Assembly: GCA_040398185.1 (NCBI GenBank)
Contig: JBBAUO010000021.1
Location: 1 to 63,518 of the forward strand
Origin: Microcystaceae cyanobacterium
Lineage (GTDB): Bacteria > Cyanobacteriota > Cyanobacteriia > Cyanobacteriales > Microcystaceae
Length of the DNA: 63,518 nucleotides
Reading direction: 5' to 3'
Below the pieces are notes generated by a model. The model saw only the letters and a list, made by a program, of their open reading frames with translations. It was not told where the DNA came from and did no database searches. The position numbers were made by a program, and so were the translations under genes. Shown in pieces: positions 13,087-63,518 of the stretch (positions are counted from its first letter, which is position 1; each line of letters opens with the position of its first letter).

Positions 13087-13237
13087 TGTCGGCGTGTTTT
13101 TTCCTGATTACGGATCTGATGGCCATCCTACACCCCGGAGGTAAAAATCAGGTAATGAAAAGATTAAGAGCAAAATTGCTAGATTTAATAGTGTTAATCG
13201 GGTAAAATTATCTGAATTATTTTGGCGACAAGAAAAG

Positions 13238-14296: not shown

Positions 14297-14297
14297 A

Positions 14298-19967: not shown

Positions 19968-20072
19968 GAAATTTACTTTTTTGGTACAAACTCGACTACC
20001 TTAGAAACAAAGCCCAGGTAATTGTAGTCCTTCAATCAATCTTTCGCTTACACCCCCATACCCGTCTCTCCC

Positions 20073-20972
20073 ATGACCGAGAAAATGGCTTATTTACGCC
20101 CCGACATTGCCCTAGCTCCTCTGACTACCTACCGTGTCGGCGGAGTAGCCCAGTGGTATGCCGATCCCCGCAATGAGGAAGAACTCAGAGCTACCTTTGC
20201 TTGGTTTCGCTCCCAAAACTTACCCCTCACCCTCCTAGGCGCCGGTTCCAATCTTTTAATTAGCGATCGCGGTTTACCAGGACTTGTGATCAGCACTCGC
20301 CATCTACGTCGTTGTACCCTAGACTCCGTAAGAACACAGATTACAGTCGCTGCGGGGGAATTTCTGCCAAAAGTTGCCTGGAAAGCCGCCAGGCGTGGTT
20401 GGAAGGGCTTGGAATGGGCTGTAGGTATCCCCGGCAGTGTGGGGGGGGCGGTAGTCATGAATGCGGGAGCCCATGGCAGTTGTATTGCTAATAGTTTGGT
20501 GGAGGCTGTGGTTCTCTGTCCTGACGGTAGTATAGAAATACTGACTCCCGAAGAATTAAATTATAGTTACCGCACTTCTTCTTTGCAGGGTTCAGGGCGA
20601 TTAGTGGTGGAAGCGACATTTCAACTAGAGCCTGGTTTTTCTGGCGTTAAAATGATGGAAGTGACCCAAAACAATCTCAACCAGCGCAAAATCTCTCAAC
20701 CCTACGATCGCCCCAGTTGTGGGAGTGTCTTTCGCAATCCTACCCCCTACGCTGCGGGTAAGTTGATTGAAGAATTGGGCTTAAAAGGCTACCGCATTGG
20801 GGATGCTGAGGTTTCCCATCGCCATGCTAATTTTATTTTGAACTGCGGTCAAGCCAAAGCCGAAGATATTTTGCGTCTAATTCGTCATGTTCAAGAGCAA
20901 GTCTCAAACCGCTGGTCCTTGGAGCTAGAGCCAGAGGTTAAAATTTTAGGAGATTTTGAATTAGTCTCCTAA
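20073..20972 (+). CDS. murB: UDP-N-acetylenolpyruvoylglucosamine reductase MurB
   Basis: FAD-binding 'GAGSNLL', C-terminal 'SCGSVFRNP'. 299 aa. Downstream of murC. Confidence 0.9.
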   Translation: MTEKMAYLRPDIALAPLTTYRVGGVAQWYADPRNEEELRATFAWFRSQNLPLTLLGAGSNLLISDRGLPGLVISTRHLRRCTLDSVRTQITVAAGEFLPKVAWKAARRGWKGLEWAVGIPGSVGGAVVMNAGAHGSCIANSLVEAVVLCPDGSIEILTPEELNYSYRTSSLQGSGRLVVEATFQLEPGFSGVKMMEVTQNNLNQRKISQPYDRPSCGSVFRNPTPYAAGKLIEELGLKGYRIGDAEVSHRHANFILNCGQAKAEDILRLIRHVQEQVSNRWSLELEPEVKILGDFELVS

Positions 20973-49118: not shown

Positions 49119-49458
49119 TATTTTTTGTAAATCTGCCTGAAATAGACCAATATTACGGGAATTGACCAAGGGAACGTGGAGAAATAAACACCGAGACTGG
49201 GTTGTATGTTTTAAGACTTGGTAGTAGAGTCATGCTCTCCTATTCTTTGATAAACTTCCCGTGACATTTCACTTGTCATCTTAACTTGTGGCCAATGAGT
49301 CGCAGGTATAGGGCGGCGGGTGTTCTTTGCTTACCTAGCCCAAAAGTAGGAATCGAGCCAGATTTTTGAATCTCGCCGCAAGGTGTGCAGGAAATACAGG
49401 AGTAATCCTTTTGTGGGATAGTTTTATAATAACATCCCGCTCTTTTTCCAGGTAAAAA

Positions 49459-50691
49459 ATGAAAATTGCCATAATCAGTTCAGGATTCTTCCCCGTTATT
49501 GATGGTGTAACAGTGACTCTCTTTCATCGATTACGCTATCTTAGTCAATATGGTCATCAAGTTTTATTGTTTTGTCCAGATTATAGTTCGCTGGGTTCAA
49601 TTTATCCAGATTGGCAAAAATATACAGGGGAAATCTTTCCTAATGTTAGAACAATTAATCTTCCTAGTACTCCTTTTATGGGTCTAGAATTTGAACAAAA
49701 TGTTAGTCAAAAATCCTATTCAGTGGTCTTACAAGAATTACAATTGTTTCAACCAGATATTATCCATGTTGATGAACCTGAGAGACTATGGTTAGGCTTC
49801 TTAAAACGAGCGGGGCTTGATTTTTCCAGACAAGCTAAAATTCCTTGTGTTAGCTTTTTTCACACCAATTTTATTGAATATCTAGAAGATTATTTACCTC
49901 TTCCCCAATGGGGTTTAAAAATTCTTCAATTCTTAGCGAAATATCATCGTAATTGGATCTATAATGGCTACGACTTGACCTTAATTTCCAGTAAAACGAC
50001 GGCTCATAAAGTCACCAGTCTAGGGTTTAAAAATGTAGTAATCGCTGATTTATTAGGAGTTGATATTGAGCCGTATAAAAATTTAGTCAAAGAATCTAAC
50101 TACTTTGCGACAAAGTATAATATTAAAGACATTAATCAAAAACTAAAATTAGTCTTTTTAGGGAGATTAACCCCTGATAAAGGTTGGCATTTTACCTTAG
50201 ATGCTCTGACTCGGTTTTCTTCTCAGATTAATTTTGACAATCTTGCCTTTATTATTGCAGGAGAAGGAACAATGAAAGCAGAAATTCAACAAAAAATCCG
50301 TAATTTAACTTCTCATATTTATCTATTAGATCGCATTTTGCCAGAACACATTCCCCCATTACTGATCAATAGTGATATTTATGTCACCACCTCTGAAAAA
50401 GAGACAAAAGGGTTGACTATTTTAGAAGCCTTAGCCGCAGGACTTCCCATCCTTGCCCCCCATGCAGGAGGGATTATTGATACTATTCAAAATAACTATA
50501 ATGGTCTACTCTTTACTCCAAAAAATGCGGTAGAATTTATCCAAAAATTAAATTTGTTATTAGAGAATATGGCTTTAAGACAGAAGATAAGTGCCAATGC
50601 GAAAGTAAGTATTCATCGCGGATGGGAAGAAAGTGTTAATAATCTTATCAATATTTGGCAAGAAACAAGGCGTTCTGTAGACGTTGAATGA
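49459..50691 (+). CDS. glycosyltransferase family 4 (GT-B, group 1)
   Basis: N-terminus 'MKIAIISSGFFPVIDGVTV' and C-terminal 'TSEKETKGLTILEALAAGLPILAP' (E-x7-E region) typical of GT4. Confidence 0.8.
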   Translation: MKIAIISSGFFPVIDGVTVTLFHRLRYLSQYGHQVLLFCPDYSSLGSIYPDWQKYTGEIFPNVRTINLPSTPFMGLEFEQNVSQKSYSVVLQELQLFQPDIIHVDEPERLWLGFLKRAGLDFSRQAKIPCVSFFHTNFIEYLEDYLPLPQWGLKILQFLAKYHRNWIYNGYDLTLISSKTTAHKVTSLGFKNVVIADLLGVDIEPYKNLVKESNYFATKYNIKDINQKLKLVFLGRLTPDKGWHFTLDALTRFSSQINFDNLAFIIAGEGTMKAEIQQKIRNLTSHIYLLDRILPEHIPPLLINSDIYVTTSEKETKGLTILEALAAGLPILAPHAGGIIDTIQNNYNGLLFTPKNAVEFIQKLNLLLENMALRQKISANAKVSIHRGWEESVNNLINIWQETRRSVDVE

Positions 50692-50965
50692 CGAGGTAGG
50701 GCGTTAGTAGCATAAAGTCGCCAACCACAGTCTCTCTTAAAGGTAGCTATCTCTGACGGGCACTAATGATACGTTAAAATCAGTACCGTTTGATGAACAC
50801 GACGGCTAGGACTGTTAGTAGTGGGACGACCCCCGTTTTCATAAACTTTATCATAATGAATTTCCGACACAATTGAGGTAGGAATATAGCCATTAACTCA
50901 ATAACGCTTCAGAATTTCTGCTACTAAAGTATCTTTTCCTGGTCGGTCAGCCGAGAGATAGAGTA

Positions 50966-51799
50966 TCATTTATTTGTTTTGCGACTAGCTTTACTAATAA
51001 TACTATCAAAATATTTATTAATAGGTGTTCCTAATAAGCTATGAAATTTTGCCAAAAAAGCCATGGCAAAACCAGGTGTTATAATAAAAATTTTTTGCTC
51101 AATTCCTTTGAGAATTTCTATTGCAACCGATTCTGGACTCCATATTTTTACTTGACCAGTAATCGCTTTTGTTTCTGGTGGTTTTGTTATATTTTCTTGT
51201 GCTAGTTGCGGCGTATCCGTATCTGAAGGATAAACAATTGATAGATTAATTCCTAACATTTTTAACTCTGGACGTAAAGATTCCGCTAATCCTCTAATTG
51301 CAAACTTAGTAGGACTATAGGCAGTATAACCATAAATTCCCATTAATCCAGCCCCAGAAGAAATTAATACAATATGGCCTTTCCCTTGTTCTTGCATGGC
51401 AGGCAATACGGCTTTAATACAATATAGAGAGCCAAAATAATTAACCGCCATCGTTTGTTCAAAAACTTCGATCGGTAAGTTTTGAAAATAGTCTGGATAA
51501 ACAATTCCTGCGGAGTTAATTAATAAGTCTGGTGGGCTAATATTATTAATTACTTGTTCAAGAACTTGTTCAACTTGTTGACGATTACTCACATCAGCTG
51601 TATAAGTTAAAATTTGTTGACTTTTCCGAATTTTTATAGCGTCAAGTTCTGATTTGACCTGTTCTAACTTGAGAGAGTTACGGGCAATTAGAGAAAGATT
51701 ACTTCCAGATAAGGTCAATTCTTTCGCCAATGCTCTCCCGATGCCGCTTGACCCTCCTGTAACAATAGCATGGGAGTAGTGAGATTTTATTAAGATCAT
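50966..51799 (-). CDS. SDR-family oxidoreductase, 3-ketodihydrosphingosine reductase (KDSR)-like
   Basis: 'HAIVTGGSSGIGRALAKEL...LSLIARN' Rossmann motif, catalytic 'YSPTKFA' (YxxxK), hydrophobic C-terminal tail as in KDSR-type SDRs. Confidence 0.75.
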   Translation of the reverse strand: MILIKSHYSHAIVTGGSSGIGRALAKELTLSGSNLSLIARNSLKLEQVKSELDAIKIRKSQQILTYTADVSNRQQVEQVLEQVINNISPPDLLINSAGIVYPDYFQNLPIEVFEQTMAVNYFGSLYCIKAVLPAMQEQGKGHIVLISSGAGLMGIYGYTAYSPTKFAIRGLAESLRPELKMLGINLSIVYPSDTDTPQLAQENITKPPETKAITGQVKIWSPESVAIEILKGIEQKIFIITPGFAMAFLAKFHSLLGTPINKYFDSIISKASRKTNK

Positions 51800-51821
51800 T
51801 ATTAATTATGATAATAGGACA

Positions 51822-52484
51822 TTAACGCGTACCAGAAAGTCTAGCTGATTCTTGCGAAACAACACCTAATGTTTTCTCAACAGTATCTTCATAAACAGTG
51901 AAAAATAAGCCCCGATTAAAACTTGATTGGATATCAGGTTCTACACTAACTTGGTGAGTAATTAAATATTTATTAGAACCCATGGAGTCAATTTGCCAGG
52001 AACCTTGTAGACTTTTCACTTCCCCTTCAACAACTTTGAATTTAATTTGTTTAGGATAATCTTCGTTGACAACAATCTTCACTTTCGCCTTTCTAGAGAA
52101 GGTTAAAAGCTGAAAAACTTGCACTTGTTCAAACACTTTGTAATTCCCTCGATTTTCCAGCAGATTGCTTTCAACTACATTAGGCATATATTTCTCAAAA
52201 TTGTCGTAATCGGTTAAAACTTTCCAAATTACTGATAAATCACCTTTGGCAATCACATATCCTGTGTATTGTCCTTTACTTCCGTTAAGAATGACCTGTC
52301 CTTCTTTTAGGTTAAGCGTAGCCGCCGAAGAATTTTGTTTAACTCTATAGTCATGAACTTGTGCAAGGACAGGAGAATTGGCAAACGATGTGAGAGTGCC
52401 TTTTGAGACTGCTATTGTTGCTAGTGTGATGAATAACAGCCTTCTCATCCATTGTAGATGTTGTTTTTGCCAAGGTTGAATCAT
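51822..52484 (-). CDS. secreted SRPBCC (START/polyketide-cyclase-like) lipid-binding-fold protein
   Basis: Signal peptide 'LLFITLATIAVSKGTLTSFA' followed by ~180-aa SRPBCC-like beta-grip pattern. Confidence 0.5.
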   Translation of the reverse strand: MIQPWQKQHLQWMRRLLFITLATIAVSKGTLTSFANSPVLAQVHDYRVKQNSSAATLNLKEGQVILNGSKGQYTGYVIAKGDLSVIWKVLTDYDNFEKYMPNVVESNLLENRGNYKVFEQVQVFQLLTFSRKAKVKIVVNEDYPKQIKFKVVEGEVKSLQGSWQIDSMGSNKYLITHQVSVEPDIQSSFNRGLFFTVYEDTVEKTLGVVSQESARLSGTR

Positions 52485-52608
52485 GGATTTTGCTAAAATT
52501 TCTAAAAGCCTCTTTTATTTTAACTTAATTGCTAAAAAAGGCAACTTATCTCTTTCCTCTTACTTTAGATAGAGGCTAAGTGAAAGTCATTAATTTGCAG
52601 TTTTTTGA

Positions 52609-53496
52609 TTAAATCTGCCTTCTTAGGTCGTATTGATAATATTTCTGACAGAAGATAAGCCAGTTATGAATAACTTGGCGATACTCAGCTTTAGCTTTAT
52701 ATTGTATGTTGGCGTGGTTAGCTCCTTCGACTAAAATCAAAGATTTAGCCCCTGAAGCTTTTTTATATAAGTCTTGACTCATTGTATAAGGAATAGTTTT
52801 GTCGGCTGTTCCATGAATAATTAAAATTGGCATTTTTAGGGAGCTTATCTTAGATAAAGAATCAAATTTTTGCGTTAAAATTAGCGATTTTGGAAATAGT
52901 TGAATGGGCAAATAATAGTCGATTACTGCTGACATTGAAGTAAAAGAACTTTCTATTATTAAACCGCCCATCGTCGGATATCGAGTGGCTAAATTAATGG
53001 CTATTGCGCCTCCCAATGAATATCCATAAACAAATATATTCTGTGGCAAAATTTGTTTTTTTATGGTTAAATAAGACCAACTTGCTTCCGCATCTTCATA
53101 CAAGCTAATTTCATTAGGAAATGCACCTTGGCTTTTTCCATAACCTCGATAGTCAATCAGTAATATTGAAACGCCTAAGTCATGAAAAAACTCCACTTTA
53201 TCTAGTAAATCCCCTAAGTTACTACTATTACCATAAAAATATAATACTGTGGGACTCTTGAGGAGATTTGAATCAATCCACCAACCATACAATTGTCCTT
53301 TAGGCATAGTAATCCATATCTCCTCATAATTTAACTTTATATCTTTTGGGGTATTATTAATCGCAGAAGAAGGGAAAAATATAAGATGAGTTTGCCCAAT
53401 TCTTAAGCCAATTATTAAGCCCAAATAAAGGCATAAAAAAATACTACTTAGAAACAGGTATTTTTTAGATAGGGCTAAAATAGTTCGCTTGGCCAT
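52609..53496 (-). CDS. membrane-anchored alpha/beta hydrolase (ABHD/Bem46-like)
   Basis: N-terminal TM anchor, 'GYSLGGAIA' nucleophile elbow, 'IIHGTADKTIP' and 'GANHANI' acid/His blocks. Start placed at ATG 53496. Confidence 0.7.
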   Translation of the reverse strand: MAKRTILALSKKYLFLSSIFLCLYLGLIIGLRIGQTHLIFFPSSAINNTPKDIKLNYEEIWITMPKGQLYGWWIDSNLLKSPTVLYFYGNSSNLGDLLDKVEFFHDLGVSILLIDYRGYGKSQGAFPNEISLYEDAEASWSYLTIKKQILPQNIFVYGYSLGGAIAINLATRYPTMGGLIIESSFTSMSAVIDYYLPIQLFPKSLILTQKFDSLSKISSLKMPILIIHGTADKTIPYTMSQDLYKKASGAKSLILVEGANHANIQYKAKAEYRQVIHNWLIFCQKYYQYDLRRQI

Positions 53497-53897
53497 AGAG
53501 TTAAAAGGAAGATTATGCATGCTACAATGGGGTTCGAGTAGCAACGTATACTGTTGGATGACTTGAAAAAAGAAGCCTCGGTTCACAAAAAGCTCGTTAT
53601 CGAAGTTTAGCGACCGCTACTAATTTACTGTGTATGATAGCTTGGTTTAATGATACACGGGAGCAAGTCAGTTCTACAGAACAAATGAACTACAACAGAA
53701 AGCAGCAAAATTGAGTAAAATGAATATCGAAGTCAAGCCGAGTCCTAAAATGAACCCAGAGACCGAAAAAAAACTCCAAGAACATCTGCGAGAAATGTTA
53801 AGTAGAACAACTGCATCTAATTCTACCAAGAACTGGTAGTCTTTACGACAGCCTGCTAGTAAATTTGTTCTGTATTTTAATTAAACTAGAGACGCAA

Positions 53898-55502
53898 ATG
53901 TTACAAAAATATTATCGACAATGGGCATTAAGAAGTCTTGTCTTAGGAATTTTGGTCCCGATACTAACTACTTTACCGGCTTACGGATCTGAAAAAATAA
54001 TTCTAATTTATGGAGGTTTAAATTTCTCTATTCCTGTAAAATCTTTGGAACGATTTGTTCAAAATGGAACAGTTGACCATAGTTTAAAATTCTATTTTCG
54101 TTTTTTAAATGCTCAACAAAAAGCTAATTTACAAGAATTTTTACGCACCCGCTACGCAGTGAAAACCTTCGCATTACATCAGTTAGGACAAACCTATGCG
54201 GGAGAGCAATTATTAACTACCTTAGGTAAGGGAATTCAAATTCCAGGTGGTCGTAATGGTCATTATGCTATTCGAGGCTCGATGATACAAGCTTCAGCAA
54301 CACCTGAAGGTCTGAGTGTGATCAATGTTATCCGTCATTTTCCAACTGATATACAATTAAACATTACATATCTTCTAGCATCTACTAAGCACATTTTTAG
54401 TCTCGTTCAGGACACACAACATTTTATGAAATCGTTACCACAAACGGAGGTGATTAACTCAACGAAAACAATCTCTATTCTACCTAGTTTGGACTTAGAA
54501 AAGACAGATGTGTTTAAAATCAGTAAAAAAGTTTTTTCTTTACATGATTACAAACGCAATCGTCAGTTAAAAATAGCATTCTATTTTCCTAAAACTGAAC
54601 AAAATAAATTTCCTGTAATTGTTATTTCTAACGGTTTGGGAGCACATCTAGATAGATTTAGTAAGTTAGCAGAACATTTAGCTTCTCATGGATTTGCGGT
54701 AATAATTGCCGACCATCCCAATAGTAATGACGAGAGACAAAACGCTTTTTATGCAGGATTATACTCAGAACCTTTTGATGCTACTGAATTTGTTGATCGC
54801 CCTTTAGATGTTACATTTATTCTTGACCAATTTGAGAAATTAAATTCTACTCAGTTTGACCATAAACTCAATTTACAAGAAGTAGGAATTTTGGGTTATT
54901 CTTTTGGGGGAGCCACTGCTTTTGCGTTAGCAGGAGCAAAAATTAACTTTCAGCAACTAGAAAAAGATTGTAAATCTCCTAATGGATTTTATAATATATC
55001 TATCTTATATCAATGTCGGGCTTTAGAGCTTCCTCAAAAATCTTACGATTTAAAAGATCAGCGAATTAAAGCCATATTTGCATTTTTTCCTTTTAGTCGT
55101 AGTCTTTATGGACAATCAGAAATGAATCAGATTAAAATTCCTGTGTTTTGGCAAGCCACAGATGCGGATGTAATTACACCATTATTAACTGAACAAGTCC
55201 CTCCCTTTACTTGGTTACAATCTCGTGACAAATATCTGGCTATTGCTGAAAAACTTCCCCACACTCGTATCATTTTAAATGCCACCAGTAAACTAATTAA
55301 TCAACAAATTACGGAGGAGCAGATAATTCAAACAACTCACCATTATCTAAGCACTTTAAGTTTAGCTTTTTTCAAAACCTATATTGCCCATAATAATCTT
55401 TATTATTCCCATTTACAGCCCCCTTATATATTATCCATTAGTCAGGAACCTTTTAGGTTACATTTAACGCAAAAAGTTCAATTTTCCGTAAATAAAAAAT
55501 AG
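53898..55502 (+). CDS. secreted alpha/beta hydrolase with N-terminal DUF1400-type domain
   Basis: Signal peptide 'LVLGILVPILTTLPAYG'. N-terminal ~200 aa resembles cyanobacterial DUF1400. C-terminal hydrolase with 'GYSFGGATA' nucleophile elbow. Start moved to ATG 53898. Confidence 0.6.
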   Translation: MLQKYYRQWALRSLVLGILVPILTTLPAYGSEKIILIYGGLNFSIPVKSLERFVQNGTVDHSLKFYFRFLNAQQKANLQEFLRTRYAVKTFALHQLGQTYAGEQLLTTLGKGIQIPGGRNGHYAIRGSMIQASATPEGLSVINVIRHFPTDIQLNITYLLASTKHIFSLVQDTQHFMKSLPQTEVINSTKTISILPSLDLEKTDVFKISKKVFSLHDYKRNRQLKIAFYFPKTEQNKFPVIVISNGLGAHLDRFSKLAEHLASHGFAVIIADHPNSNDERQNAFYAGLYSEPFDATEFVDRPLDVTFILDQFEKLNSTQFDHKLNLQEVGILGYSFGGATAFALAGAKINFQQLEKDCKSPNGFYNISILYQCRALELPQKSYDLKDQRIKAIFAFFPFSRSLYGQSEMNQIKIPVFWQATDADVITPLLTEQVPPFTWLQSRDKYLAIAEKLPHTRIILNATSKLINQQITEEQIIQTTHHYLSTLSLAFFKTYIAHNNLYYSHLQPPYILSISQEPFRLHLTQKVQFSVNKK

Positions 55503-55518
55503 TATTGAGTTAGGAATA

Positions 55519-57132
55519 ATGAATAAGTTTTTATTTGCTTTTATGTCGAAAGTCTCTAAAAGATACTTGCTGATAACGATTATTATTCTAGTTTTAGGAC
55601 TCTATTTTAGAATCACAAATCTGAGTAATAAAATTTATTGGGTTGATGAAGTTGCAACTTCTTTGCGCGTGGCAGGGTTTACAAAACAAGAATTAATTCA
55701 GGATGTTTTAAATCTAGGCGTGATAGAGATTAAATCCTTGCAATATTATCAAAAAATTACGCTAAAAAAATCTTTTTATGATTTAGTAAAAGCTTTAATT
55801 AAAAGTCCAGAACATGCACCGCTTTATTTTATCGTTGCTAGAATATGGACTGAGTTTTTTGGCAGTTCAATTTTCTCAATTAGAAGTCTATCTGTGATAT
55901 TTAGTATCCTAAGTTTACCATCTATTTATTGGTTATGTAGACTATTATTTCAATCTTCAAAACCTGGATGGATTGCGGTTTTGCTTTTGGCAATTTCTCC
56001 TCTATACGTAGCCTATGCTCAAGAAGCTCGACCTTATAGTTTATGGCTCGAAATAATTCTTCTATCCCAGATTACTCTTTTGGTATGTTTACGTTCCAAT
56101 TCTTTACTAAATTGGTTTTACTACACTATTATTTTGATTCTTAGTCTTTATACTTCTTTACTATCAATTTTACTAATTATTGCCCAGAGCGCCTACGTAA
56201 TTATAATTAATAAACTTCGAGCTGAATCACAAGTTATTTTCCAATTAATCGCCGTCGGAATTGCCTTAATATTTTTTAGCCCCTGGTTAATCATCATGGC
56301 TCAAAATTGGCAACAATTTCAAGACAACACAACTTGGATGAAAGTCCACTTAAATCTAGGCGCTATGGCGGTAATTTGGTTTTATAGCATGGCTACGATT
56401 TTTATTGAAACACCAATTTATCTAAATTTTGATGCTATGATTTTGACTCGAATCATTATCGACATTAATTTATTTATTTTAGTAATTTTTTCTCTATGTT
56501 TTATTTATCGTAAAACTAATAAAAGTGTTTGGTTATTTGTTTTATTGCAGATACTGATTCCTTTAATAATCATGAGAGGATTAGACCTAACATTAGGAGG
56601 ACAGCGTTCAACAGCTATTAGATATATGATGCCCAGTTATTTATTGGTTCATGTGACAGTTGCTTACTTATTTTCAAGTAAAATTTTAACCGCTTCCAAG
56701 GGTTTTTTTCAAACCAAAAAACAATGGATAGTGCTACTTTTTCTGATTTTGTTTATTGAAGTATCTTCCTGCACTTTTATGTTGAATAAATCTCCCCAGT
56801 ATCAAAAAACTCGCAATCTCCATAATCCTGAGATCGCTCAAATTCTTAATCATAATCCTTTGGCAATTTTACTGACTGAGCCATCCAATATACTTGACGC
56901 TATTTCTATTAGTTATTTACTCAAACCATCTATTCAATTTCAGTTAATTTCTAATCCTTCTCTACTAACACTTTTACCTCTCAGTAGAACTCTTTATGTT
57001 TTAAATCCTTCCTTAGACTTAATCAATCAAATCCGACAGAAGCTAGGGGATTTTGAAATCGAACAAGTCTATCAACCTAAGTTATTAACAGAAGGGGAAA
57101 TTCATTTATCACTTTGGCAGTTAAAAACTTAG
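55519..57132 (+). CDS. glycosyltransferase family 39 (PMT_2/ArnT-like GT-C membrane glycosyltransferase)
   Basis: 'YWVDEVATSLRVAG', 'EHAPLYFIVARIW', 'RSLSVIFSILSLPSIYWLCR' match the ArnT/PMT N-terminal loop and helices. ~12 TM. Translationally adjacent to the upstream hydrolase. Confidence 0.75.
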   Translation: MNKFLFAFMSKVSKRYLLITIIILVLGLYFRITNLSNKIYWVDEVATSLRVAGFTKQELIQDVLNLGVIEIKSLQYYQKITLKKSFYDLVKALIKSPEHAPLYFIVARIWTEFFGSSIFSIRSLSVIFSILSLPSIYWLCRLLFQSSKPGWIAVLLLAISPLYVAYAQEARPYSLWLEIILLSQITLLVCLRSNSLLNWFYYTIILILSLYTSLLSILLIIAQSAYVIIINKLRAESQVIFQLIAVGIALIFFSPWLIIMAQNWQQFQDNTTWMKVHLNLGAMAVIWFYSMATIFIETPIYLNFDAMILTRIIIDINLFILVIFSLCFIYRKTNKSVWLFVLLQILIPLIIMRGLDLTLGGQRSTAIRYMMPSYLLVHVTVAYLFSSKILTASKGFFQTKKQWIVLLFLILFIEVSSCTFMLNKSPQYQKTRNLHNPEIAQILNHNPLAILLTEPSNILDAISISYLLKPSIQFQLISNPSLLTLLPLSRTLYVLNPSLDLINQIRQKLGDFEIEQVYQPKLLTEGEIHLSLWQLKT

Positions 57133-59481
57133 TCACTTGTACCAATAAGCATCACGCTGAAATGGATAGTTCGGTAGGATAATGGGAGAGAATAAGTTTT
57201 TTTCTTCAAAATTTGACCAATTAATTGAGCCACCTAGACTGTAAAATTTGGCTAAGTAGCCACACAAACAAGACCAAATATCTGGAAATTGAAAATCAAT
57301 AGAAATCATCAAATCATAGTCTTCTTGATTTAAAATTTCGAGAGCCTTCTCATTGGATACTTGAGAAGATATTGGATCTGGAAAAAACAGATGTCTATTT
57401 AGATAACTTAATAAAGGAACTTTACCAGGAAAATAAGTGACAGCATCCGATTTTTTTTGTCCAGCTAAGACCATTAAGCTATCTTTTAAACTGACAATTT
57501 CTGCAACAGTCATAGCCACCCAATGTCCAACACCATAACCGATAACGGCTGTGGGAAGAATGCCCCAAGACTCCAAAAGCTTGAATAGGGCATATTCTAA
57601 TATGAAGAGAATGAGCATTAGCTCAGAACTTGTCTGATTTTCTTGTTCAAAAAAGTTACCTAAATCAATCTTCAGGCAAAGTAGAATTTCTTGTTTACAA
57701 TCATCAATTGACTTTTGAAAAACGGATTGAGTTTGATATAAAAACAATGCCTTTTTCCAAGATTTAGAAACATCTTGACAAAATAGAAAAGGAATTTTTA
57801 AGGAATGATTTCTGCTAACTTGTCCAAAGAAGAGATCAAGGGTGAATTGTTCATTCAGAAAGTCTATCAGTTTTTGCTGCAGTGTCGCCAAAGAAAACGT
57901 GACAACCGCTAAACGATAATTAAAATCTGAGCGGCTAGTGTTTGCTGTTCCACAAACATTAGCCAAAGATAAATAGGGATGGGTGGTCAAAAAATCACAA
58001 TATTTCTCAACTAAGACTGTCCTGGCTGATTGACTTTTAGCAGAAAGGGTAAATAAGTAAGCAGGATATTTGACCATTTCCTGAGCCGATACAACGGGAG
58101 TTGAAGCAGGAAATTGAGAAACAATAACATGGGCATTTGTTCCACTAAAGCCAAAAGAACTTACTCCCGCCACTTTTGAATGATTATCTCTTGGCCAAGA
58201 CATATTTTTGGTGGGAATTACCAACGGCAGTTGTGACCAATTAATATTTGGATTAGGATTTTTAAAATGAATTTGAGGAGGAATAGCTTCATTTTGAAGA
58301 CATAAGATAACTTTGATTAAGCTAACAATGCCAGCGGCAGCTTCCAAATGGCCAATATTAGCTTTAACCGAGCCTACAATTAAAGATCCAGAACTTTTTT
58401 GGCTAAAAACTTGCCCCAGTGCTCCAATTTCGATGGAATCGCCCAGTATTGTTCCTGTTCCATGGGCTTCCACATAACTAACGTCATCTGCCTTTATATG
58501 AGCATTTTTAAGGGCTTGTTGAATAACAGCTTGTTGAGCAAGTCCATTAGGAGCCGTTAAGCCATTACTACGACCGTCTTGATTGATAGCCGACCCCCGC
58601 AGAACTGCTAAAATATTATCCTGAGCAGTGATAGCCTCTTGTAACCGTTTGAGAACTACGACACCACATCCCTCTGAGCGCACAAAGCCATTGGCAGAGG
58701 CGTCAAAGGTCTTACAATGACCATCAGGAGATAACATTCGTGCTTTTGAAAAACTAATACTAATTTCAGGGGAAATAATACGATTGACCCCTCCAACAAT
58801 TGCTAAATTACACTCTTGGTTACGGAGACTAGCCATTGCTAAATGAATTGCCACTAGAGAGGATGAGCAAGCTGTGTTCACTGAGAGGCTTGGACCATTT
58901 AGCCCTAAAAAATAGGATAAACGACCTGATGCAGTGCTGTGGGTATTACCTGTTATCAGATAAGCATCAATTTCATTAGGATCTCTTTTTAATAGTTGAT
59001 GCCAGTAATCATTACCACAAATTCCCACAAAAACACCTGTTGAACTGCCACTTAAATTATCGGGAGGAATTCCTGAATTTTCTAGTGCTTCCCAACATAC
59101 TTCTAAAAGGACTCTTTGCTGAGGATCTAAACTAATAGCTTCTCGCGGGGCAATATTAAAGAAATGAGCATCAAAGGTTTGAAGATGTGGAATAAATCCG
59201 CCATAAAACGTACATATTTTCCCTGTTTGATTTAGATCAAGATCGTAGTAAGATGCTAAGTTCCAATGTTCTGGAGGAATTTCGCTGATTCCGTCTTTAC
59301 CATCTCGTAAAAACTGCCAGAAATCATCAGGATTATTAATGCCTCCAGGCAGACGACAACCCATTCCAATTACCGCTATCGGCTCACTTTTAGCTTGCTC
59401 TAAATCATTCAATTTATCTTGCAATTGTTTGATCGCAACTAAAGCTTGTTTTGTCGTAGATAACTCTTGGCTCGATGACAT
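57133..59481 (-). CDS. type I polyketide synthase fragment: ketosynthase (active) + KS-AT linker + truncated inactive acyltransferase; no ACP
   Basis: KS Cys 'NTACSSSLVAIHLA', His 'EAHGTGT' and 'NIGHLEAAAG' all present. AT GHSxGE site replaced by 'GYGVGH'. Gene ends with post-AT motif 'LPNYPFQRDAYWYK'. Stop codon abuts the convergent GT39 stop (TAGTCA). Confidence 0.8.
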   Translation of the reverse strand: MSSSQELSTTKQALVAIKQLQDKLNDLEQAKSEPIAVIGMGCRLPGGINNPDDFWQFLRDGKDGISEIPPEHWNLASYYDLDLNQTGKICTFYGGFIPHLQTFDAHFFNIAPREAISLDPQQRVLLEVCWEALENSGIPPDNLSGSSTGVFVGICGNDYWHQLLKRDPNEIDAYLITGNTHSTASGRLSYFLGLNGPSLSVNTACSSSLVAIHLAMASLRNQECNLAIVGGVNRIISPEISISFSKARMLSPDGHCKTFDASANGFVRSEGCGVVVLKRLQEAITAQDNILAVLRGSAINQDGRSNGLTAPNGLAQQAVIQQALKNAHIKADDVSYVEAHGTGTILGDSIEIGALGQVFSQKSSGSLIVGSVKANIGHLEAAAGIVSLIKVILCLQNEAIPPQIHFKNPNPNINWSQLPLVIPTKNMSWPRDNHSKVAGVSSFGFSGTNAHVIVSQFPASTPVVSAQEMVKYPAYLFTLSAKSQSARTVLVEKYCDFLTTHPYLSLANVCGTANTSRSDFNYRLAVVTFSLATLQQKLIDFLNEQFTLDLFFGQVSRNHSLKIPFLFCQDVSKSWKKALFLYQTQSVFQKSIDDCKQEILLCLKIDLGNFFEQENQTSSELMLILFILEYALFKLLESWGILPTAVIGYGVGHWVAMTVAEIVSLKDSLMVLAGQKKSDAVTYFPGKVPLLSYLNRHLFFPDPISSQVSNEKALEILNQEDYDLMISIDFQFPDIWSCLCGYLAKFYSLGGSINWSNFEEKNLFSPIILPNYPFQRDAYWYK

Positions 59482-59502
59482 AGTAGTAACCAGTAACTAA
59501 TA

Positions 59503-60270
59503 TTAATTGATTTGATCCTTCCAAGCTTCTAAATTTTGCTTACCTTTTTGGACATAGGGAGAAATAGAGACGAGCTTAATAATAAATTGATTAACTAGAG
59601 AAAGAGGAAACTTGAGAGGGCGTAGAAAATCTACAAAGAGGACGACGCGAATATCATTAGTTTGGTTCCAAGCTTCGTGGGGAAAAGTGTCATCAAAAAT
59701 TAAGCTTTTTCCTTCTTGCCAATGCCGAATTTCATTACCTACCCGAATTTGACAATCCGTTGAGGAATGGGGAACTTTTAAGGCAAGATGATAACGAATA
59801 ACCCCTTTGTAAGGGCCACAATGCTCAGGGATGTGTTTATGGGGTAGTAAAATTGAAAAAAATGCAGTTTTCATACCAGGGATTTGTTCAACTAATTGGG
59901 TAGTTTGAGGACATTTCTGACAATTTTGCTCTGCCTTTAGTCCATAGGCATAGAAAAAGAAAGTCTTCCAACGATGATCTTGAGTAATATCGAGCTGATC
60001 AGGGGAAATATCTTGAAAATTTGGAATATTATTTAAACTTTTTAAAAGTTCATCTAGTTCTTGTCGAATAATTAACCAGTTTTCTTCTAAATTTATGACC
60101 CAGTTAAATTGTCGGCAATCAAAAAAGACTTGATTTTCTACTAAGGAATGCCTATCTAATAAGCCTTCTAGTTTTCGGAAATACTTCTCACCTTGAGTAA
60201 CCACAAACTGATGATGTTTATCACCCATCTTTGAGATAATTTCCTTAATGTTTTTAGCAATAATGTTCAT
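59503..60270 (-). CDS. aspartyl/asparaginyl beta-hydroxylase family (AspH/LpxO-like) Fe(II)/2OG oxygenase
   Basis: 'LLPHKHIPEHCGPYKGVIRYHLALKVP' and 'FDDTFPHEAWN' match the pfam Asp_Arg_Hydrox 2-His-1-carboxylate region. Confidence 0.75.
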   Translation of the reverse strand: MNIIAKNIKEIISKMGDKHHQFVVTQGEKYFRKLEGLLDRHSLVENQVFFDCRQFNWVINLEENWLIIRQELDELLKSLNNIPNFQDISPDQLDITQDHRWKTFFFYAYGLKAEQNCQKCPQTTQLVEQIPGMKTAFFSILLPHKHIPEHCGPYKGVIRYHLALKVPHSSTDCQIRVGNEIRHWQEGKSLIFDDTFPHEAWNQTNDIRVVLFVDFLRPLKFPLSLVNQFIIKLVSISPYVQKGKQNLEAWKDQIN

Positions 60271-60466
60271 AAGTTATTAGAAGCCGATTTCCGTCTCGTA
60301 ATTACTAGCCACTAATCTAGTATATCCAATAATATAGCTCTTGTATTTAGATTGTCAACTTACTGTAAGGATAAGGCCCTTTGACTTCACTCAGTACAAG
60401 CTGCTCAGTGACCACAGGTAACAAATATCGTTCGGAAATTATTGAGGATTGCTATAGCAACATTTA

Positions 60467-62797
60467 TTAGCGTAATTTCACCTTAATTATATGGGGATAA
60501 CCATCAGTCTTAGGATCAAGGGGTGAACCGCTTACCCAAACTTGGTTATCTTGAATCTGAAGAATTTGACGACTTCCACTGCCAGAAAAGTCAAGATTCA
60601 TCTTGGGATACAGATTCGATAAAATGGTTTTATCATCAATCATAACACCTGTTTGATCTGGATGTTGAGAATTTGAAAAAATTCCATTTTTCCAATCTAA
60701 ATTATTAATATTAGAGGGAAGAATTTGACGAGTTAAAGCAAAGTCATTTAAGGAAATTAATAGCTGCGCCTGACAAGATTTAACAGTCAATTTTGCTCGT
60801 TCCTCAGGATAAGCTTTCATCTCTAAAATTGACTCTGTTCCCTTTTGATGTTCAAGAGAAATATGCCAATTGGAGTGACTAGAAGGTGCGCCATAACTGT
60901 AGTTGCCTTTTTTTCCAATAGATTTTTGGTGATCTGTTTTTCGTTCAATAATATTCACTAATCCTCGATTTCCTATTAGAGGAATAGACGTAGGTTTAAC
61001 GGTTAAATAATAATTGAGAGTTATATCAGCATAGTAGATATTATGTTCTTCTTTATTCACCGATTGAGGTGTATTAATTATTAATTTTACTACATCATTT
61101 TTTTCTTGAATAATTTGGCAAATAATGGGTAAAGAATTTAGATGTTTCGGTTGCTCTAGGCGTTGCCAAATTAAGTTATAGAATGTCGCTTCGACCAATT
61201 GGTAGTCCTTAATAAATTCTCTATAAAACCACCAATTTGTTCGTCTTACCCAAGTTTCCCATAAATAAGCATCTTCTCGCAATGTAGTAATATATTCAGG
61301 TTTAAATTGTTCCCAGTTACTTAAATATTGATATCTAGATTTATCTCCTAAAGCATGAATGATATAATCAGTTCCAGTGGGATTGAGCGCTCCGATAATC
61401 ACATCCATTCCCGTTGAGTAAGTAGATAATATTTTTTGTAAGGAAGGTTTATTTTGTAGTTCTTGTTTTAACGTTTTAGCTATTTCAATACTTGATTTCC
61501 ATTTAGGGGATAACCATCCGCCTAACTCTGCTACTTTAATAAATCCTTTTTCTGGTGAAGGAATAGGATAATAAATATAATAGTTAATCACATGAATTAA
61601 AGGAGCAATGACAAAGATTAACATCATAAATAGAGATGCCTGCCGAAAAATAAAGTGAATATTAATTCGTGCTAAAAATCGCTGAATTTTTCCATGGAAT
61701 AATAAATAAATAGACAAAGGAATGGTGAAAAGGGAAACAATACCACTTAACAGAAAATAACGAACACTCATAGTCCCTCCCACGGACGAGAGAATCCCTG
61801 CTGTGTAAACGGTTAAGCTAAGATAGATTAAAAGTAGGTGTTGAATGGTATAAGTTTTAAAATATCCTCGTAAGATAATGATGATAATACTCACCAAATA
61901 AATGCAAGAAAATCCCAAAAATAAAGGATGTTTTAAGAAGTCTTGAGGTGCAAGTATCTTATTATAATTTTCAAACCATACATAATACCAAAATTGATCT
62001 CCAACTACTCCACTAAAATTACTTTTTAACCACTCAGGTAGATGTCCTTGGGTCAACAGCATTCCCATTATATAAAAAGTTGTTGCAGCAGATAATATCG
62101 TTAAGAAAATTTTCCTTAATCTTCTTTTTCTATCTTGGGTAATCGCATAAATAATTGTCAAAAAAATTAAATTAAAAGTCGAGGGAATGCCATAATCATT
62201 CGACCAAAGGGGTTGCATTCCCATTAAGCCACCTATTCCTAAATAAAGTAACCATGAATGAGAGAATGATAGCAAGAGAACTAATAAAATTAAGCTTGTC
62301 AAAAAAGGCAAGGAACTCCGAACATTCAAATTACTTGTTCCAGGGCCGACAATTTCATTAATTAAATGAGAATTCTCGAAAAGAAAAGAAACAATAGTCA
62401 TCACAAAAGAAGCCCAAATTAAAGAAGAATATTTTGTCAGTCCCGAGCAAAAAAATAAAGTCCATAAAACTAAAAAATGCAAGCTTAAAGCGATTGAATA
62501 AATACTGAATTGAGAAGATGCAAAATCCCTCCCTGTCAGAAACGTAAAAAAAGCATTGAGATAGGTCGGACCCAAACCTAAATAAGGATTAAATTCTCTT
62601 CCAGGAATCTGCCCTAATAAAATTCTACGCACTGGGTTAAAGGTTTGAAATGCGCCATTGAGTGGGATATAGTCTAAATTTAATCGATGATAACTTGCTA
62701 TACAATAAATAGACAAAATAACAGATAAAAGAGCGACAAATGGTAAATATTTTTGCCATTCAATACCGAGAAAAATTGTTTTGCGTTCTATTCTCAT
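60467..62797 (-). CDS. large polytopic membrane protein with C-terminal extracytoplasmic domain (possible GT-C-like)
   Basis: 776 aa. ~12-14 TM helices in the first ~420 aa, then ~350-aa hydrophilic domain. First gene of the minus-strand operon with the AspH-like and KS genes. Confidence 0.5.
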   Translation of the reverse strand: MRIERKTIFLGIEWQKYLPFVALLSVILSIYCIASYHRLNLDYIPLNGAFQTFNPVRRILLGQIPGREFNPYLGLGPTYLNAFFTFLTGRDFASSQFSIYSIALSLHFLVLWTLFFCSGLTKYSSLIWASFVMTIVSFLFENSHLINEIVGPGTSNLNVRSSLPFLTSLILLVLLLSFSHSWLLYLGIGGLMGMQPLWSNDYGIPSTFNLIFLTIIYAITQDRKRRLRKIFLTILSAATTFYIMGMLLTQGHLPEWLKSNFSGVVGDQFWYYVWFENYNKILAPQDFLKHPLFLGFSCIYLVSIIIIILRGYFKTYTIQHLLLIYLSLTVYTAGILSSVGGTMSVRYFLLSGIVSLFTIPLSIYLLFHGKIQRFLARINIHFIFRQASLFMMLIFVIAPLIHVINYYIYYPIPSPEKGFIKVAELGGWLSPKWKSSIEIAKTLKQELQNKPSLQKILSTYSTGMDVIIGALNPTGTDYIIHALGDKSRYQYLSNWEQFKPEYITTLREDAYLWETWVRRTNWWFYREFIKDYQLVEATFYNLIWQRLEQPKHLNSLPIICQIIQEKNDVVKLIINTPQSVNKEEHNIYYADITLNYYLTVKPTSIPLIGNRGLVNIIERKTDHQKSIGKKGNYSYGAPSSHSNWHISLEHQKGTESILEMKAYPEERAKLTVKSCQAQLLISLNDFALTRQILPSNINNLDWKNGIFSNSQHPDQTGVMIDDKTILSNLYPKMNLDFSGSGSRQILQIQDNQVWVSGSPLDPKTDGYPHIIKVKLR

Positions 62798-63518
62798 AAA
62801 TCTTTAAGGATTGATAGGATTAAACTGACTCAAAGTAAGCTATCTCGTCCGAAAGGGACGAGGCTTTGAATAGCCTGAATCTATTGGATAAGCCAATAAA
62901 CTCGAAGCTTTAGGTTGGCTTACATTCAACCCCACTAAAGCAAAATTATTTCAGAAGTGTTTTGTCTCCATCCTCAGTCCATCCAGGCACTTTATTACTA
63001 CAATTTCTGTTGCTCTATACTGACTTGAAGCTTGACGACTAGGGTTAGGACTTTGTCCTATGGCTCTAAAAACTTGCTACTATGATTATACTTTAGAAGG
63101 GGATAGAATTAAAGCTTTTCTGAGATTTTAAACTGAGCATCGTCGAAGAGCGGGGGTTCAGACCCAATCTTTTCTTTTCTGAGCAAGTTTTGCTTTCATC
63201 TTATTGCCAGAGATCATGGGCAAATTCTTTTAGATAAAAGGGTTTGGAGAGTAATAAGTGGGTACACAAAATAAATTACCCAAAATTAGTAGAAGCGGGT
63301 TTAGCCAGAAGCCTTGTCAAATAAACGATATGATTCGCTCAAAACCCACCCACTTCCGTGTAGTTAATTGTGTTTCTTACTTTTCCCGCTAAGTTCAAAA
63401 TGCAGTCTGTAAGGGCATTATAGCCTTGGGGTAGTTTTAGTGATATAGTACAGAAAAGTTTTTGGGTGGAGGTCAAAAAATGTTGGAATGGTGGGTGAAA
63501 AATTTTGCCAGTTGCGCC

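Follow-up and report, generated by a model that had tools for sequence, protein, structure and literature searches.

A conserved cyanobacterial ketosynthase family with a vestigial acyltransferase and no carrier domain, in gene sets resembling envelope lipid pathways

Modular polyketide synthase (PKS) theory treats the ketosynthase (KS), acyltransferase (AT) and acyl carrier protein (ACP) as an inseparable unit. A departure from this has been characterised experimentally in calcimycin biosynthesis, where CalA3 (PDB 7wvz) is an ACP-less chain-release module that carries an N-terminal docking domain and a KS with conserved Cys-His-His residues, and that forms a C-N bond to give an amide (PMC10006239). 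The AT of CalA3 is inactivated by a Ser to Gly change and by loss of the His and Arg, and a dead DH and a psiKR/KR region buttress its KS-AT (PMC10006239). In the literature search CalA3 was the sole relevant case, and no published description was found of a stand-alone KS with a dead AT (KS-AT0), of a FAAL/AONS cluster or of a cyanobacterial sphingolipid-like pathway.

The gene considered here lies near one end of a 63.5-kb contig of a Microcystaceae cyanobacterium, the whole of which is the window analysed. A preliminary description, made from the letters alone, had placed an open reading frame at 57133 to 59481; it is indeed there, with its frame intact over 782 codons, and its strand is to be corrected to minus. 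Its parts are as follows.

57133..59481, minus strand: stand-alone KS-AT0 gene, 782 aa, with docking helix, KS, linker domain, vestigial AT and post-AT linker, and no ACP
59386..59481, minus strand: N-terminal docking/coiled-coil helix, residues 1-32, MSSSQELSTTKQALVAIKQLQDKLNDLEQAKS; AlphaFold helix at residues 9-31
58102..59385, minus strand: ketosynthase domain, residues 33-460; PF00109 and PF02801, full length
57802..58101, minus strand: KS-AT linker domain, residues 461-560; matches to PF16197, PF22621 and PF22336
57283..57801, minus strand: vestigial acyltransferase, residues 561-733; sub-threshold Acyl_transf_1
57133..57282, minus strand: post-AT linker with LPNYPFQRDAYW, then the stop codon; aligns to CurL 889-936

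Much of what had been read from the sequence stands, namely a complete type I KS with its triad, an N-terminal helix, a KS-AT linker, a dead and shortened AT and termination right behind the post-AT motif. The N and C Pfam domains of the KS are matched in full (330 and 151 bits), Pfam also finds KAsynt_C_assoc and a CurL-like/RhiE-like KS-AT linker, and a codon-by-codon check places Cys205 in NTACSSS (58867-58869), His340 in EAHGTG (58462-58464) and His378 in NIGHLE (58348-58350), with no active-site substitution. In alignment the N-terminal helix corresponds to the N-termini found on multi-subunit cis-AT PKS proteins, and the C-terminus reads ...LPNYPFQRDAYWYK*. The AlphaFold model (pLDDT 84, pTM 0.85) drops below a pLDDT of 50 at residues 694-709 of the vestigial AT, and the closest fold to it is the CurL KS-AT didomain (TM 0.86, 41-43% identity).

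The AT is where the protein has lost most. Its nucleophile elbow, canonically GHSxG, reads GYGVGH (57523-57540), and Acyl_transf_1, at 23.7 bits, stays below its cutoff of 32.7 and spans positions 18-118 of the 319 in the profile. Missing from the remnant, in the family alignments and in that with CurL (PDB 4mz0), are the GQGSQ, Arg and His (HAFH) motifs and the small subdomain. In the CurL alignment residues 4-675 match CurL 10-705 and residues 734-781 match CurL 889-936, so that 58 residues stand in place of 183 in CurL. The net loss is about 125 aa, which takes with it the AT Arg and catalytic His together with the ferredoxin-like small subdomain. Pfam finds no PP-binding, DH or KR match in the protein, which ends at residue 782 behind the post-AT linker. 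Without a carrier domain of its own, the enzyme must depend on one provided in trans, as the preliminary description had supposed. That description had also pointed to a missing AT or ACP in another frame downstream as the mark of a frameshifted pseudogene. When a canonical KS-AT-ACP was searched by tblastn against the whole 63.5-kb window the KS-AT0 gene was the sole match, with no AT part or ACP in any frame, and the stop of the gene directly adjoins that of a convergent PMT_2 gene (57132/57133); for both reasons the frameshift explanation fails.

Relatives of the protein, at 48-72% identity, make up about 70 cyanobacterial cluster representatives and form one clade in the KS tree, with about 41 that bear an AT and about 28 that are KS-plus-linker proteins without any. 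The Ser is missing in 40 of the 41 AT-bearing members, and the linker domain is kept even in the relatives of 600-680 aa that have no AT. (A protein search with the C-terminal 312 aa was swamped by repeated matches to giant multimodular PKSs and was not used for the family count.) Across 44 aligned sequences C205, H340 and H378 are invariant, as are L769, P770, Y772, R776 and Y779 of the post-AT linker, and K11, L14 and L24 of the docking helix are near-invariant across the family alignment. In three pairs dN/dS is 0.085-0.112 for the KS domain, 0.30-0.35 for the AT remnant and 0.14-0.21 for the whole gene; for the N-terminal helix it is 0.06-0.29. The vestigial elbow itself varies between near-identical strains, being GYGVGH or GCGVGH. 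KS-AT0 is a conserved family under purifying selection and not a broken leftover, and the earlier suggestion of a relic of a larger PKS falls with the shared architecture of these representatives and their invariant triad.

As to descent, the clade is sister in an NJ tree to canonical GHSxG cyanobacterial CurL-type cis-AT modules and lies far from the KSs of the partner megasynthases described below. An apparent tie between CurL and the 7zma bimodule as best match arises from summing two KS domains of 362 bits; taken singly each 7zma KS scores about 362 bits and PksJ and PksL score 397-409, against 710 bits for CurL. The resemblance to the KS-AT0 units of trans-AT PKSs that had been drawn earlier is thus not borne out, since both the bit scores and the tree place the KS beside cis-AT modules of the CurL type. 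Discrete stand-alone Acyl_transf_1 proteins, as would serve a trans-AT system, were found neither in the island within the window nor among the genes listed for 12 related loci. The protein is not of the PfaA/HglE type, for it gains 227 bits with TIGR02813, whose cutoff is 1010, and 778 bits with modular PKS models. From the alignments and the tree the family appears to descend from a CurL-like cis-AT module, its AT having decayed to a structural stub and in some relatives gone altogether.

The surroundings of the gene point to lipids. At about 49.4 kb the GC content drops from about 0.43 to 0.33-0.35, and from there runs a 14-kb low-GC island whose genes concern lipids and glycosyl transfer. 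It is cut off where the contig stops, at an IS fragment 0.7 kb past the operon, and so a partner synthase is not visible here; Pfam and tblastn find no ACP, active AT or megasynthase on the 63.5-kb contig. The other genes of the island are these.

49459..50691, plus strand: GT4 glycosyltransferase, first gene of the low-GC island; Glycos_transf_1, 103 bits
50966..51799, minus strand: SDR, KR-type, 3-ketodihydrosphingosine-reductase-like; adh_short 169 bits, KR 62 bits
51822..52484, minus strand: predicted secreted SRPBCC (Polyketide_cyc/START-like) lipid-binding protein; PF03364, 50 bits
52609..53586, minus strand: membrane-anchored alpha/beta hydrolase; Hydrolase_4 and Abhydrolase_1
53865..55502, plus strand: DUF1400 plus alpha/beta-hydrolase, with N-terminal signal peptide; PF07176, 123 bits
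55519..57132, plus strand: PMT_2 (ArnT/PMT-type GT-C) membrane glycosyltransferase, convergent with and abutting the KS gene; PF13231, 52 bits
59503..60270, minus strand: OlsC/LpxO-like lipid hydroxylase (Asp/Arg-hydroxylase family); PF05118, 194 bits
60467..62797, minus strand: Mem776, 776-aa polytopic membrane protein with C-terminal beta-rich domain; GT-C-like predicted fold

The hydroxylase gene (matching the NCBIfam models OlsC at 266 bits and LpxO at 132 bits, under the cutoff in both cases) is separated by 21 nt from the KS-AT0 gene downstream of it, and the two are probably co-transcribed. The SDR has a TGGSSGIG motif and a hydrophobic C-terminus, and its second-best PDB match, over the full length at 92 bits, is TSC10 (8jat). 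It had been stated that ACP, KR, DH and TE are all absent from the window; for the ACP this is right, while for the other three it is too strong, as the same island encodes this discrete SDR with its KR-domain match, the SRPBCC 'polyketide cyclase/dehydrase' and two alpha/beta hydrolases. Mem776 has no Pfam match (even at E=10) and no NCBIfam match, though about 45 full-length cyanobacterial homologues exist, which share a contig with KS-AT0 homologues in three cases (64383, 67444 and 5893 bp). Its AlphaFold model (pLDDT 89) has AftA, STT3, ArnT and EmbA/B as top folds at TM 0.28-0.38, and judged by this predicted fold Mem776 is GT-C-like, and is co-distributed with the KS-AT0 family. It shows no homology to the 556-aa membrane protein found behind the KS-only genes, which likewise has no Pfam match even at E=10.

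Nine neighbourhoods of KS-AT0 homologues share much of this content. The most constant neighbour is the secreted SRPBCC, within four genes in all nine and with a signal-peptide-like N-terminus in every homologue; PMT_2 occurs in six, and DUF1400 in four. DUF1400 recurs in L004, L005, L089 and L093, its homologues too having signal-peptide-like N-termini. The SDR recurs beside the SRPBCC (Cyc) gene in L005 and L089, the N-terminal TM segment of the 52609..53586 hydrolase is conserved in the homologues of L004, L005 and L089, and a GT4 homologue (721 bits) belongs to the L004 operon, L090 likewise encoding a GT4. The hydroxylase homologue is 10 nt upstream of KS-AT0 in L004 and sits behind PMT_2 in the L089 cluster. 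A profile search of contigs with the C-terminal family alignment returned at least 79 loci, and among those listed none had an SRPBCC neighbour, but it used back-translated motifs that amount to generic post-AT/linker motifs and so gave no usable contexts.

Megasynthases of the form FAAL-ACP-KS-AT-DH-ER-KR-ACP and/or KS-AT-DH-ER-KR-ACP-AONS adjoin the gene at three of the nine KS-AT0 loci and at two of three KS-only loci; none lies within 10 kb at L007, L087, L088 and L092, which leaves a megasynthase partner not proven universal. AONS and KS-AT0 homologues lie on contigs of matching length in two cases (199885 and 4449 bp), and most AONS matches belong to a separate family, the very common stand-alone ACP-AONS of about 550 aa. 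The gene had been called an isolated single module, which does not hold, as in relatives it belongs constantly to a lipid cluster of several genes, often with a FAAL-PKS and a PKS-AONS, and here it stands in the 14-kb island; the specialised-lipid role proposed with it fits the gene neighbourhood. The family thus marks a widespread, uncharacterised cyanobacterial gene set (FAAL/PKS-AONS, KDSR-like SDR, OlsC-like hydroxylase, GT4, two GT-C proteins, secreted SRPBCC and DUF1400) that resembles an envelope amino/glycolipid pathway.

How the stand-alone KS may meet its carrier is suggested by the ends of the proteins. In L089, L090, L091 and L006 the first megasynthase ends with an ACP and a tail of about 45 aa, '...LSDSEAEALLKKALLDLNY*', and the AONS megasynthase has no docking helix, beginning 'MSSEPIAIIG', or in L006 'MQLEPIAIVG'. 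At these four loci a helix of about 32 aa is found at the N-terminus of the stand-alone KS only. From this presence and absence of elements we infer that the docking helix of the stand-alone KS matches the C-terminal ACP tail of the megasynthase. The ATs of the partner megasynthases keep their Ser (GHSVG or GDSVG), and in L089, L090 and L091 the two megasynthase genes lie side by side in one orientation with 3-144 nt between them, which fits a simple collinear line needing no third KS.

The reading favoured here, at a probability of roughly 0.4, is that KS-AT0 is a functional trans-acting KS that adds one elongation in an envelope amino/glycolipid pathway; its partner, reaction and product we infer. 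The docking helix would recruit the C-terminal tail of the partner ACP, the acyl chain would move onto Cys205, and His340 and His378 would drive a decarboxylative Claisen condensation with malonyl-ACP loaded by the partner's own AT, the outcome being one additional elongation in trans. The FAAL/PKS(-AONS), KS-AT0, the KDSR-like SDR, the OlsC/LpxO-like hydroxylase and the GT4 would act in the cytoplasm, and the two GT-C-type membrane glycosyltransferases, the secreted SRPBCC lipid binder and the secreted or anchored alpha/beta hydrolases outside it. We know of no characterised trans-acting elongating KS of cis-AT ancestry, and an intact Cys-His-His triad is no proof of Claisen chemistry, as CalA3 keeps its triad and yet forms amides. 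A KS that docks on another module's ACP to elongate in trans would, if this is right, be a new wiring principle and useful in PKS engineering.

A possible if doubtful alternative is chain release as in CalA3, where KS-AT0 would dock on the ACP tail of the FAAL-PKS and pass the acyl chain by way of Cys205 to a nucleophile, with no malonate condensation. The likeliest nucleophile would be the amine of an AONS-made long-chain amino-ketone or amino-alcohol, giving a ceramide-like N-acyl lipid that would then be reduced by the KDSR-like SDR, 2-hydroxylated by the OlsC-like enzyme, glycosylated by the GT4 and GT-C proteins, and exported. This would explain both the docking tail without a release domain on the first megasynthase and the lack of an N-terminal helix on the AONS one, it would supply the missing N-acyltransferase to a cluster with sphingolipid-type tailoring genes, and the characterised CalA3 shows the same features as KS-AT0 (PMC10006239). 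The sole family-specific KS substitution, His161 for the canonical Gln in an NDYWH loop, may also favour it, but is too little to decide the chemistry. On the other hand the dead DH and KR that buttress the KS-AT in CalA3 are absent, the kinship to CalA3 is a general KS-AT homology (375 bits), several loci, the window included, have no AONS or megasynthase nearby, and the literature search found no cyanobacterial ceramide-like lipid. The fuller form of the idea is rather unlikely: that KS-AT0 is an amide-forming off-loader joining the FAAL-PKS acyl chain to the PKS-AONS amino alcohol, and that many cyanobacteria make a ceramide-like envelope glycolipid. Were it true, the route would be independent of the eukaryotic and the known bacterial Spt/CerR/bCerS pathways, its assembly and export would fall to Mem776, the secreted SRPBCC and the DUF1400 hydrolase, and CalA3-like acyl transfer would have a second, unrelated non-Claisen KS example along with a new route to ceramide-like lipids.

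Quite improbable is a KS that works independently of any megasynthase, with AcpP as carrier and FabD loading malonate, elongating fatty acyl chains for an envelope lipid, which comes close to the primer elongation on a trans ACP first proposed for this gene. In its favour stand the established trans-AT systems, where a discrete malonyl transferase serves AT-less type I KSs, and the five loci (L007, L087, L088, L092 and the window) with no PKS or ACP in reach, where only SRPBCC, PMT_2 and hydrolase genes accompany KS-AT0. Yet it is not obvious what a conserved N-terminal docking helix would do with AcpP, on contigs of sufficient length a megasynthase whose C-terminal tail matches is often adjacent, and absence within 10 kb is not absence from the genome. 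That the gene is a decaying relic or frameshifted pseudogene with no current function is hardly credible, for although the dead, shortened AT with no ACP behind it, the low-GC setting beside an IS fragment and the polymorphic elbow would suit decay, they are outweighed by the intact frame with no AT or ACP remnants in others, the architecture kept across the family with its invariant triad, dN/dS values near 0.1 in the KS and near 0.3 in the AT stub, and conserved synteny with the same lipid genes.

Set against known systems, the gene set follows the logic of the mycobacterial FadD32-Pks13-CmrA and other FAAL-PKS envelope-lipid systems, in which a FAAL-primed type I PKS works with a discrete SDR, and secreted alpha/beta hydrolases and GT-C glycosyltransferases are common to both. 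Unlike KS-AT0, Pks13 brings ACPs of its own along with a TE and an AT that is active, and the NCBIfam Pks13 model scores 565 bits against a cutoff of 2100; a Pks13-like or OleA-like head-to-head condensation was considered in view of the FAAL, SDR and hydrolase context, and no specific evidence for it was found. With CalA3 the protein shares a docking N-terminus, the Cys-His-His triad, a dead AT, the lack of an ACP and the need for the ACP of another subunit. CalA3 differs in being actinobacterial, in its extra dead DH and psiKR/KR and in an AT that keeps both subdomains; the sequence similarity is generic at 375 bits, and amide formation, demonstrated for CalA3, is a proposal for KS-AT0.

CurL of curacin biosynthesis is the best sequence match, at 710 bits over residues 4-675, and the two are alike in the N-terminal docking helix, the KS triad, the linker domain and the post-AT LPxYPFQR motif. 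Only CurL has an active AT (GHSxG, Arg, HAFH and small subdomain) within a module with KR and ACP, whereas KS-AT0 has lost all the AT catalytic residues and stops behind the post-AT linker. The trans-AT KSs (PksJ, PksL and the 7zma bimodule) combine an AT-less KS with a retained linker domain and take malonyl loaded from elsewhere, and their KS-plus-linker layout is seen again in the 600-680-aa relatives of KS-AT0; they differ in their independent origin, and KS-AT0 is not embedded in a multimodular chain. Here a large selected family has shed its ACP and shows the loss of the AT at successive stages, from an active AT to a Ser-less stub to none, and as this loss arose independently of the trans-AT PKSs it offers a natural series for the evolution of AT-less KSs.

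KS-AT0 is a single ORF of 782 codons (57133..59481, minus strand) whose ketosynthase is complete in Pfam (PF00109 at 330 bits, PF02801 at 151 bits) and is followed by matches to the KS C-terminal extension and to a CurL-like/RhiE-like KS-AT linker. Catalytic Cys205, His340 and His378 are all found, each codon having been checked, and so the intact Cys-His-His of the preliminary description stands. The acyltransferase match is a fragment covering profile positions 18-118 of 319 and, at 23.7 bits, falls below the Pfam cutoff of 32.7 bits. In the HMMER alignment to CurL (PDB 4mz0) residues 4-675 pair with CurL 10-705 and residues 734-781 with CurL 889-936, and so 183 CurL residues between the two blocks are reduced to 58, which bears out the shortening of the AT described earlier. 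Missing with this stretch are the Arg of the AT, its ferredoxin-like small subdomain and its catalytic His. The GQGSQ oxyanion motif is lost too, and the nucleophile elbow reads GYGVGH (window 57523-57540), as had been read from the sequence; the protein ends ...LPNYPFQRDAYWYK at its stop codon. An AlphaFold model built from 44 sequences is confident (pLDDT 84, pTM 0.85), predicts the N-terminal helix noted before at residues 9-31, leaves only residues 694-709, within the stub of the AT, disordered and has the CurL KS-AT didomain as its best structural match (TM 0.86). The AT-stub part of the gene is lower in GC than the KS part (0.33 against 0.43). Databases label the protein only as 'type I polyketide synthase' or 'acyl transferase domain-containing protein'. 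A resemblance to trans-AT synthases, proposed initially, is not upheld by the scores, around 362 bits per trans-AT KS versus 710 for CurL.

Dozens of full-length cyanobacterial relatives (730-855 aa, 48-72% identity) were found by database search, together with a second set of 600-680 aa that ends after the linker domain. Cultured carriers include Gloeocapsa sp. PCC 73106, Hydrococcus and Chroococcus sp. FPU101. The KS triad does not vary across two alignments, of 20 and 44 sequences. In both, the canonical GHSxG is missing from all family members, which share one large AT deletion, whereas canonical modules within the same alignments keep GHSxGE. From tree labels the nucleophile Ser is missing in 40 of the 41 AT-bearing members, Gly being its commonest replacement, with Asp, Glu, Lys and Thr also seen. 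By neighbour joining of 136 KS domains, KS-AT0 and the KS-only proteins fall in one clade, the latter nested inside it several times; canonical cis-AT modules from cyanobacteria are its sister group, and the adjacent megasynthases have KSs that lie far from it. Nei-Gojobori dN/dS for three orthologue pairs is 0.14-0.21 overall, being 0.085-0.112 for the KS, 0.30-0.35 for the AT stub and 0.06-0.29 for the N-terminal helix. Constraint is thus strong on the KS and weaker, though still present, on the AT stub, which is what a structural remnant should show. A nearly identical metagenomic allele (P0001) has GCGVGH at window 57523-57540 in place of GYGVGH, a polymorphism beside the lost nucleophile. 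That KS-AT0 might be a non-functional relic of a larger PKS, as was first suggested, is effectively excluded by the conserved family, the invariant triad and the purifying dN/dS. Elbows without Ser (GYGVG, GEGVG, GQGVG, GHGVG and GFGVG) also occur outside the stand-alone clade, in proteins P0119, P0114, P0106, P0007, P0017 and P0072, some of them myxobacterial and mostly with an ACP (P0106 has no PP-binding match), and so AT inactivation seems to recur in otherwise cis-AT-type modules.

In the window, GC steps down from about 0.43 to 0.33-0.35 at ~49.4 kb, exactly where the GT4 gene begins, and stays low until the window end. The resulting block of nine lipid and glycosyl-transfer genes (~49400-63518) stands apart in composition, as an acquired island would, and comprises:

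Island gene 1: GT4 glycosyltransferase
Island gene 2: SDR, with TSC10 as second-best PDB match
Island gene 3: 51822-52484, minus strand, secreted SRPBCC protein with a signal-peptide-like N-terminus
Island gene 4: membrane-anchored alpha/beta hydrolase
Island gene 5: secreted DUF1400 hydrolase with a signal peptide
Island gene 6: PMT_2 (ArnT-type GT-C) glycosyltransferase
Island gene 7: 57133..59481, minus strand, KS-AT0
Island gene 8: Asp/Arg-hydroxylase-family enzyme, 21 nt upstream of the KS-AT0 gene
Island gene 9: 60467-62797, minus strand, Mem776, a 776-aa membrane protein with no Pfam family

The alignment with TSC10, a 3-ketodihydrosphingosine reductase, covers the whole SDR, and the best matches of the hydroxylase are OlsC (ornithine-lipid hydroxylase) and LpxO (lipid A hydroxylase). 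The earlier statement that the window encodes no ACP, KR, DH or TE holds for the ACP by tblastn and fails for the KR, in that a discrete KR-type SDR is encoded; this SDR, the SRPBCC 'cyclase/dehydrase' protein and two alpha/beta hydrolases share the island with KS-AT0, 3.5-6.2 kb from it. Using a canonical KS-AT-ACP query, tblastn returned neither the missing AT part nor an ACP in any frame of the whole window, and the KS-AT0 stop abuts that of a convergent gene; a frameshifted pseudogene was rejected on these grounds. The window spans one entire contig (63,518 bp) of a MAG from an uncultured member of the Cyanobacteriota. Its end (62798-63518) coincides with a transposase (Tnp_DNA_bind) fragment on a longer metagenomic copy (L002, 1-300), and the locus L001, from another assembly, likewise begins just upstream of the Mem776 gene, and so a repeat probably hides the remaining cluster. 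In this contig a candidate partner synthase is out of view.

Twelve related neighbourhoods were read, nine of them with a KS-AT0 gene. In all nine an SRPBCC gene is found no more than four genes away, always with a signal-peptide-like N-terminus, and so the protein probably binds lipids in the periplasm or lumen instead of acting as a cyclase in the cytoplasm; PMT_2 recurs in six of the nine, DUF1400 in four and the hydroxylase in three. SRPBCC neighbours are seen at window 51822-52484 (minus strand) and in loci L004-L007, L087-L089 and L092, and signal peptides occur on DUF1400 hydrolases also. The contig of the closest orthologue (71% identity) holds one operon of PMT_2-FAAL-GT4-hydroxylase-KS-AT0, adjoined by a 2564-aa PKS ending KR-ACP-AONS, and a KS-AT-DH-ER-KR-ACP-AONS megasynthase adjoins a 49%-identical relative. 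Divergent from a 57%-identical relative, and from two KS-only relatives, is a megasynthase pair, the first being FAAL-ACP-KS-AT-DH-ER-KR-ACP and the second beginning KS-AT-DH and running past the locus end. Linkage of KS-AT0 genes to envelope-lipid genes is constant, and that to FAAL-PKS/PKS-AONS frequent. A frameshift that may be an error of long-read assembly splits a PKS gene (13191-20635) in locus L006.

Mem776 is polytopic with a C-terminal beta-sandwich region, matches no Pfam or NCBIfam family, and has about 45 full-length cyanobacterial homologues, all annotated 'hypothetical'. Three of these share a contig with a KS-AT0 homologue, one such contig being of 5.9 kb with little other room. 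Its AlphaFold model is confident (pLDDT 89), and the top fold matches are only GT-C glycosyltransferases (AftA, STT3, ArnT and EmbA/B) at low TM, 0.28-0.38. A different polytopic membrane protein of 556 aa, with a 'DDARQH' motif near its N-terminus and no Pfam family, follows the 615-aa KS-only genes of two loci (L090 11934-13604, L091 11860-13530); no sequence kinship between it and Mem776 was found.

Both megasynthases are present in three loci, L089, L090 and L091, and there megasynthase 1, the FAAL-PKS, ends in an ACP and a tail of ~45 aa, ...LSDSEAEALLKKALLDLNY and variants before the stop, a pattern characteristic of the docking domains at the C-termini of cyanobacterial PKSs. The AONS megasynthase starts directly with its KS ('MSSEPIAIIG') with in-frame stops just upstream, and so an N-terminal docking helix is missing there; that of L006 ('MQLEPIAIVG') likewise starts with its KS and has no such helix. 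The stand-alone KS carries a conserved N-terminal helix of ~32 aa, LSPTKRALLALKQMQAKLEALERAKNEPIAIIG, which judging by sequence would be the only N-terminal docking element open to the ACP tail. The partner ATs keep their Ser and so could load malonate onto their own ACPs.

KS-AT0 combines an intact, selected KS, a dead and shrinking AT, no ACP and a conserved docking helix, and probably works in trans with an ACP that belongs to a partner synthase. Our preferred reading, tentatively put at about 0.4, is that it would perform one extra decarboxylative elongation on the docked partner ACP, with malonate supplied by the partner's own AT. ACP-AONS didomain proteins, mostly on other contigs, could also be ACP-bearing partners. 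Stand-alone didomains of this kind (~520-570 aa, among proteins P0373-P0487) form a very common cyanobacterial family, with carriers including Hydrococcus, Moorena, Okeania, Hyella, Calothrix and Xenococcaceae, and P0459 (905 aa) is a FAAL-ACP-AONS fusion.

CalA3 of calcimycin synthesis offers a published precedent for another chemistry. This module has no ACP; it carries a docking domain at its N-terminus, its KS keeps the Cys-His-His triad, and its AT is inactive through a change of Ser to Gly and the loss of His and Arg. The KS frees the upstream ACP-bound chain via amide formation (PMC10006239). By analogy KS-AT0 might make a ceramide-like lipid by N-acylating the long-chain amine that the AONS provides. 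Such release would account for the docking asymmetry, for a megasynthase 1 without a release domain and for the sphingolipid-type tailoring genes, although the extra dead DH and KR domains of CalA3 are missing from KS-AT0; we regard it as the main rival, somewhat less likely than elongation. Only one KS substitution is specific to the family, His161 in place of Gln in the NDYWH loop, and it is indecisive on chemistry. In four loci KS-AT0 and SRPBCC genes, with or without PMT_2, lie amid housekeeping genes with nothing else of the set. A third reading, a KS working independently of any megasynthase, with AcpP and FabD, is rather unlikely.

In the literature searched no description was found of the KS-AT0 family, of a cluster joining FAAL/PKS-AONS to a stand-alone KS, or of a cyanobacterial sphingolipid-like pathway. 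Overall KS-AT0 is real and widespread and is built from familiar parts. Its ancestry is not that of a trans-AT KS; it derives from the KS-AT didomain of a cis-AT module of CurL type and would work likewise, although its AT and its want of an ACP set it outside that class. With CalA3 it has four defining features in common, the structural DH-KR region being particular to CalA3.
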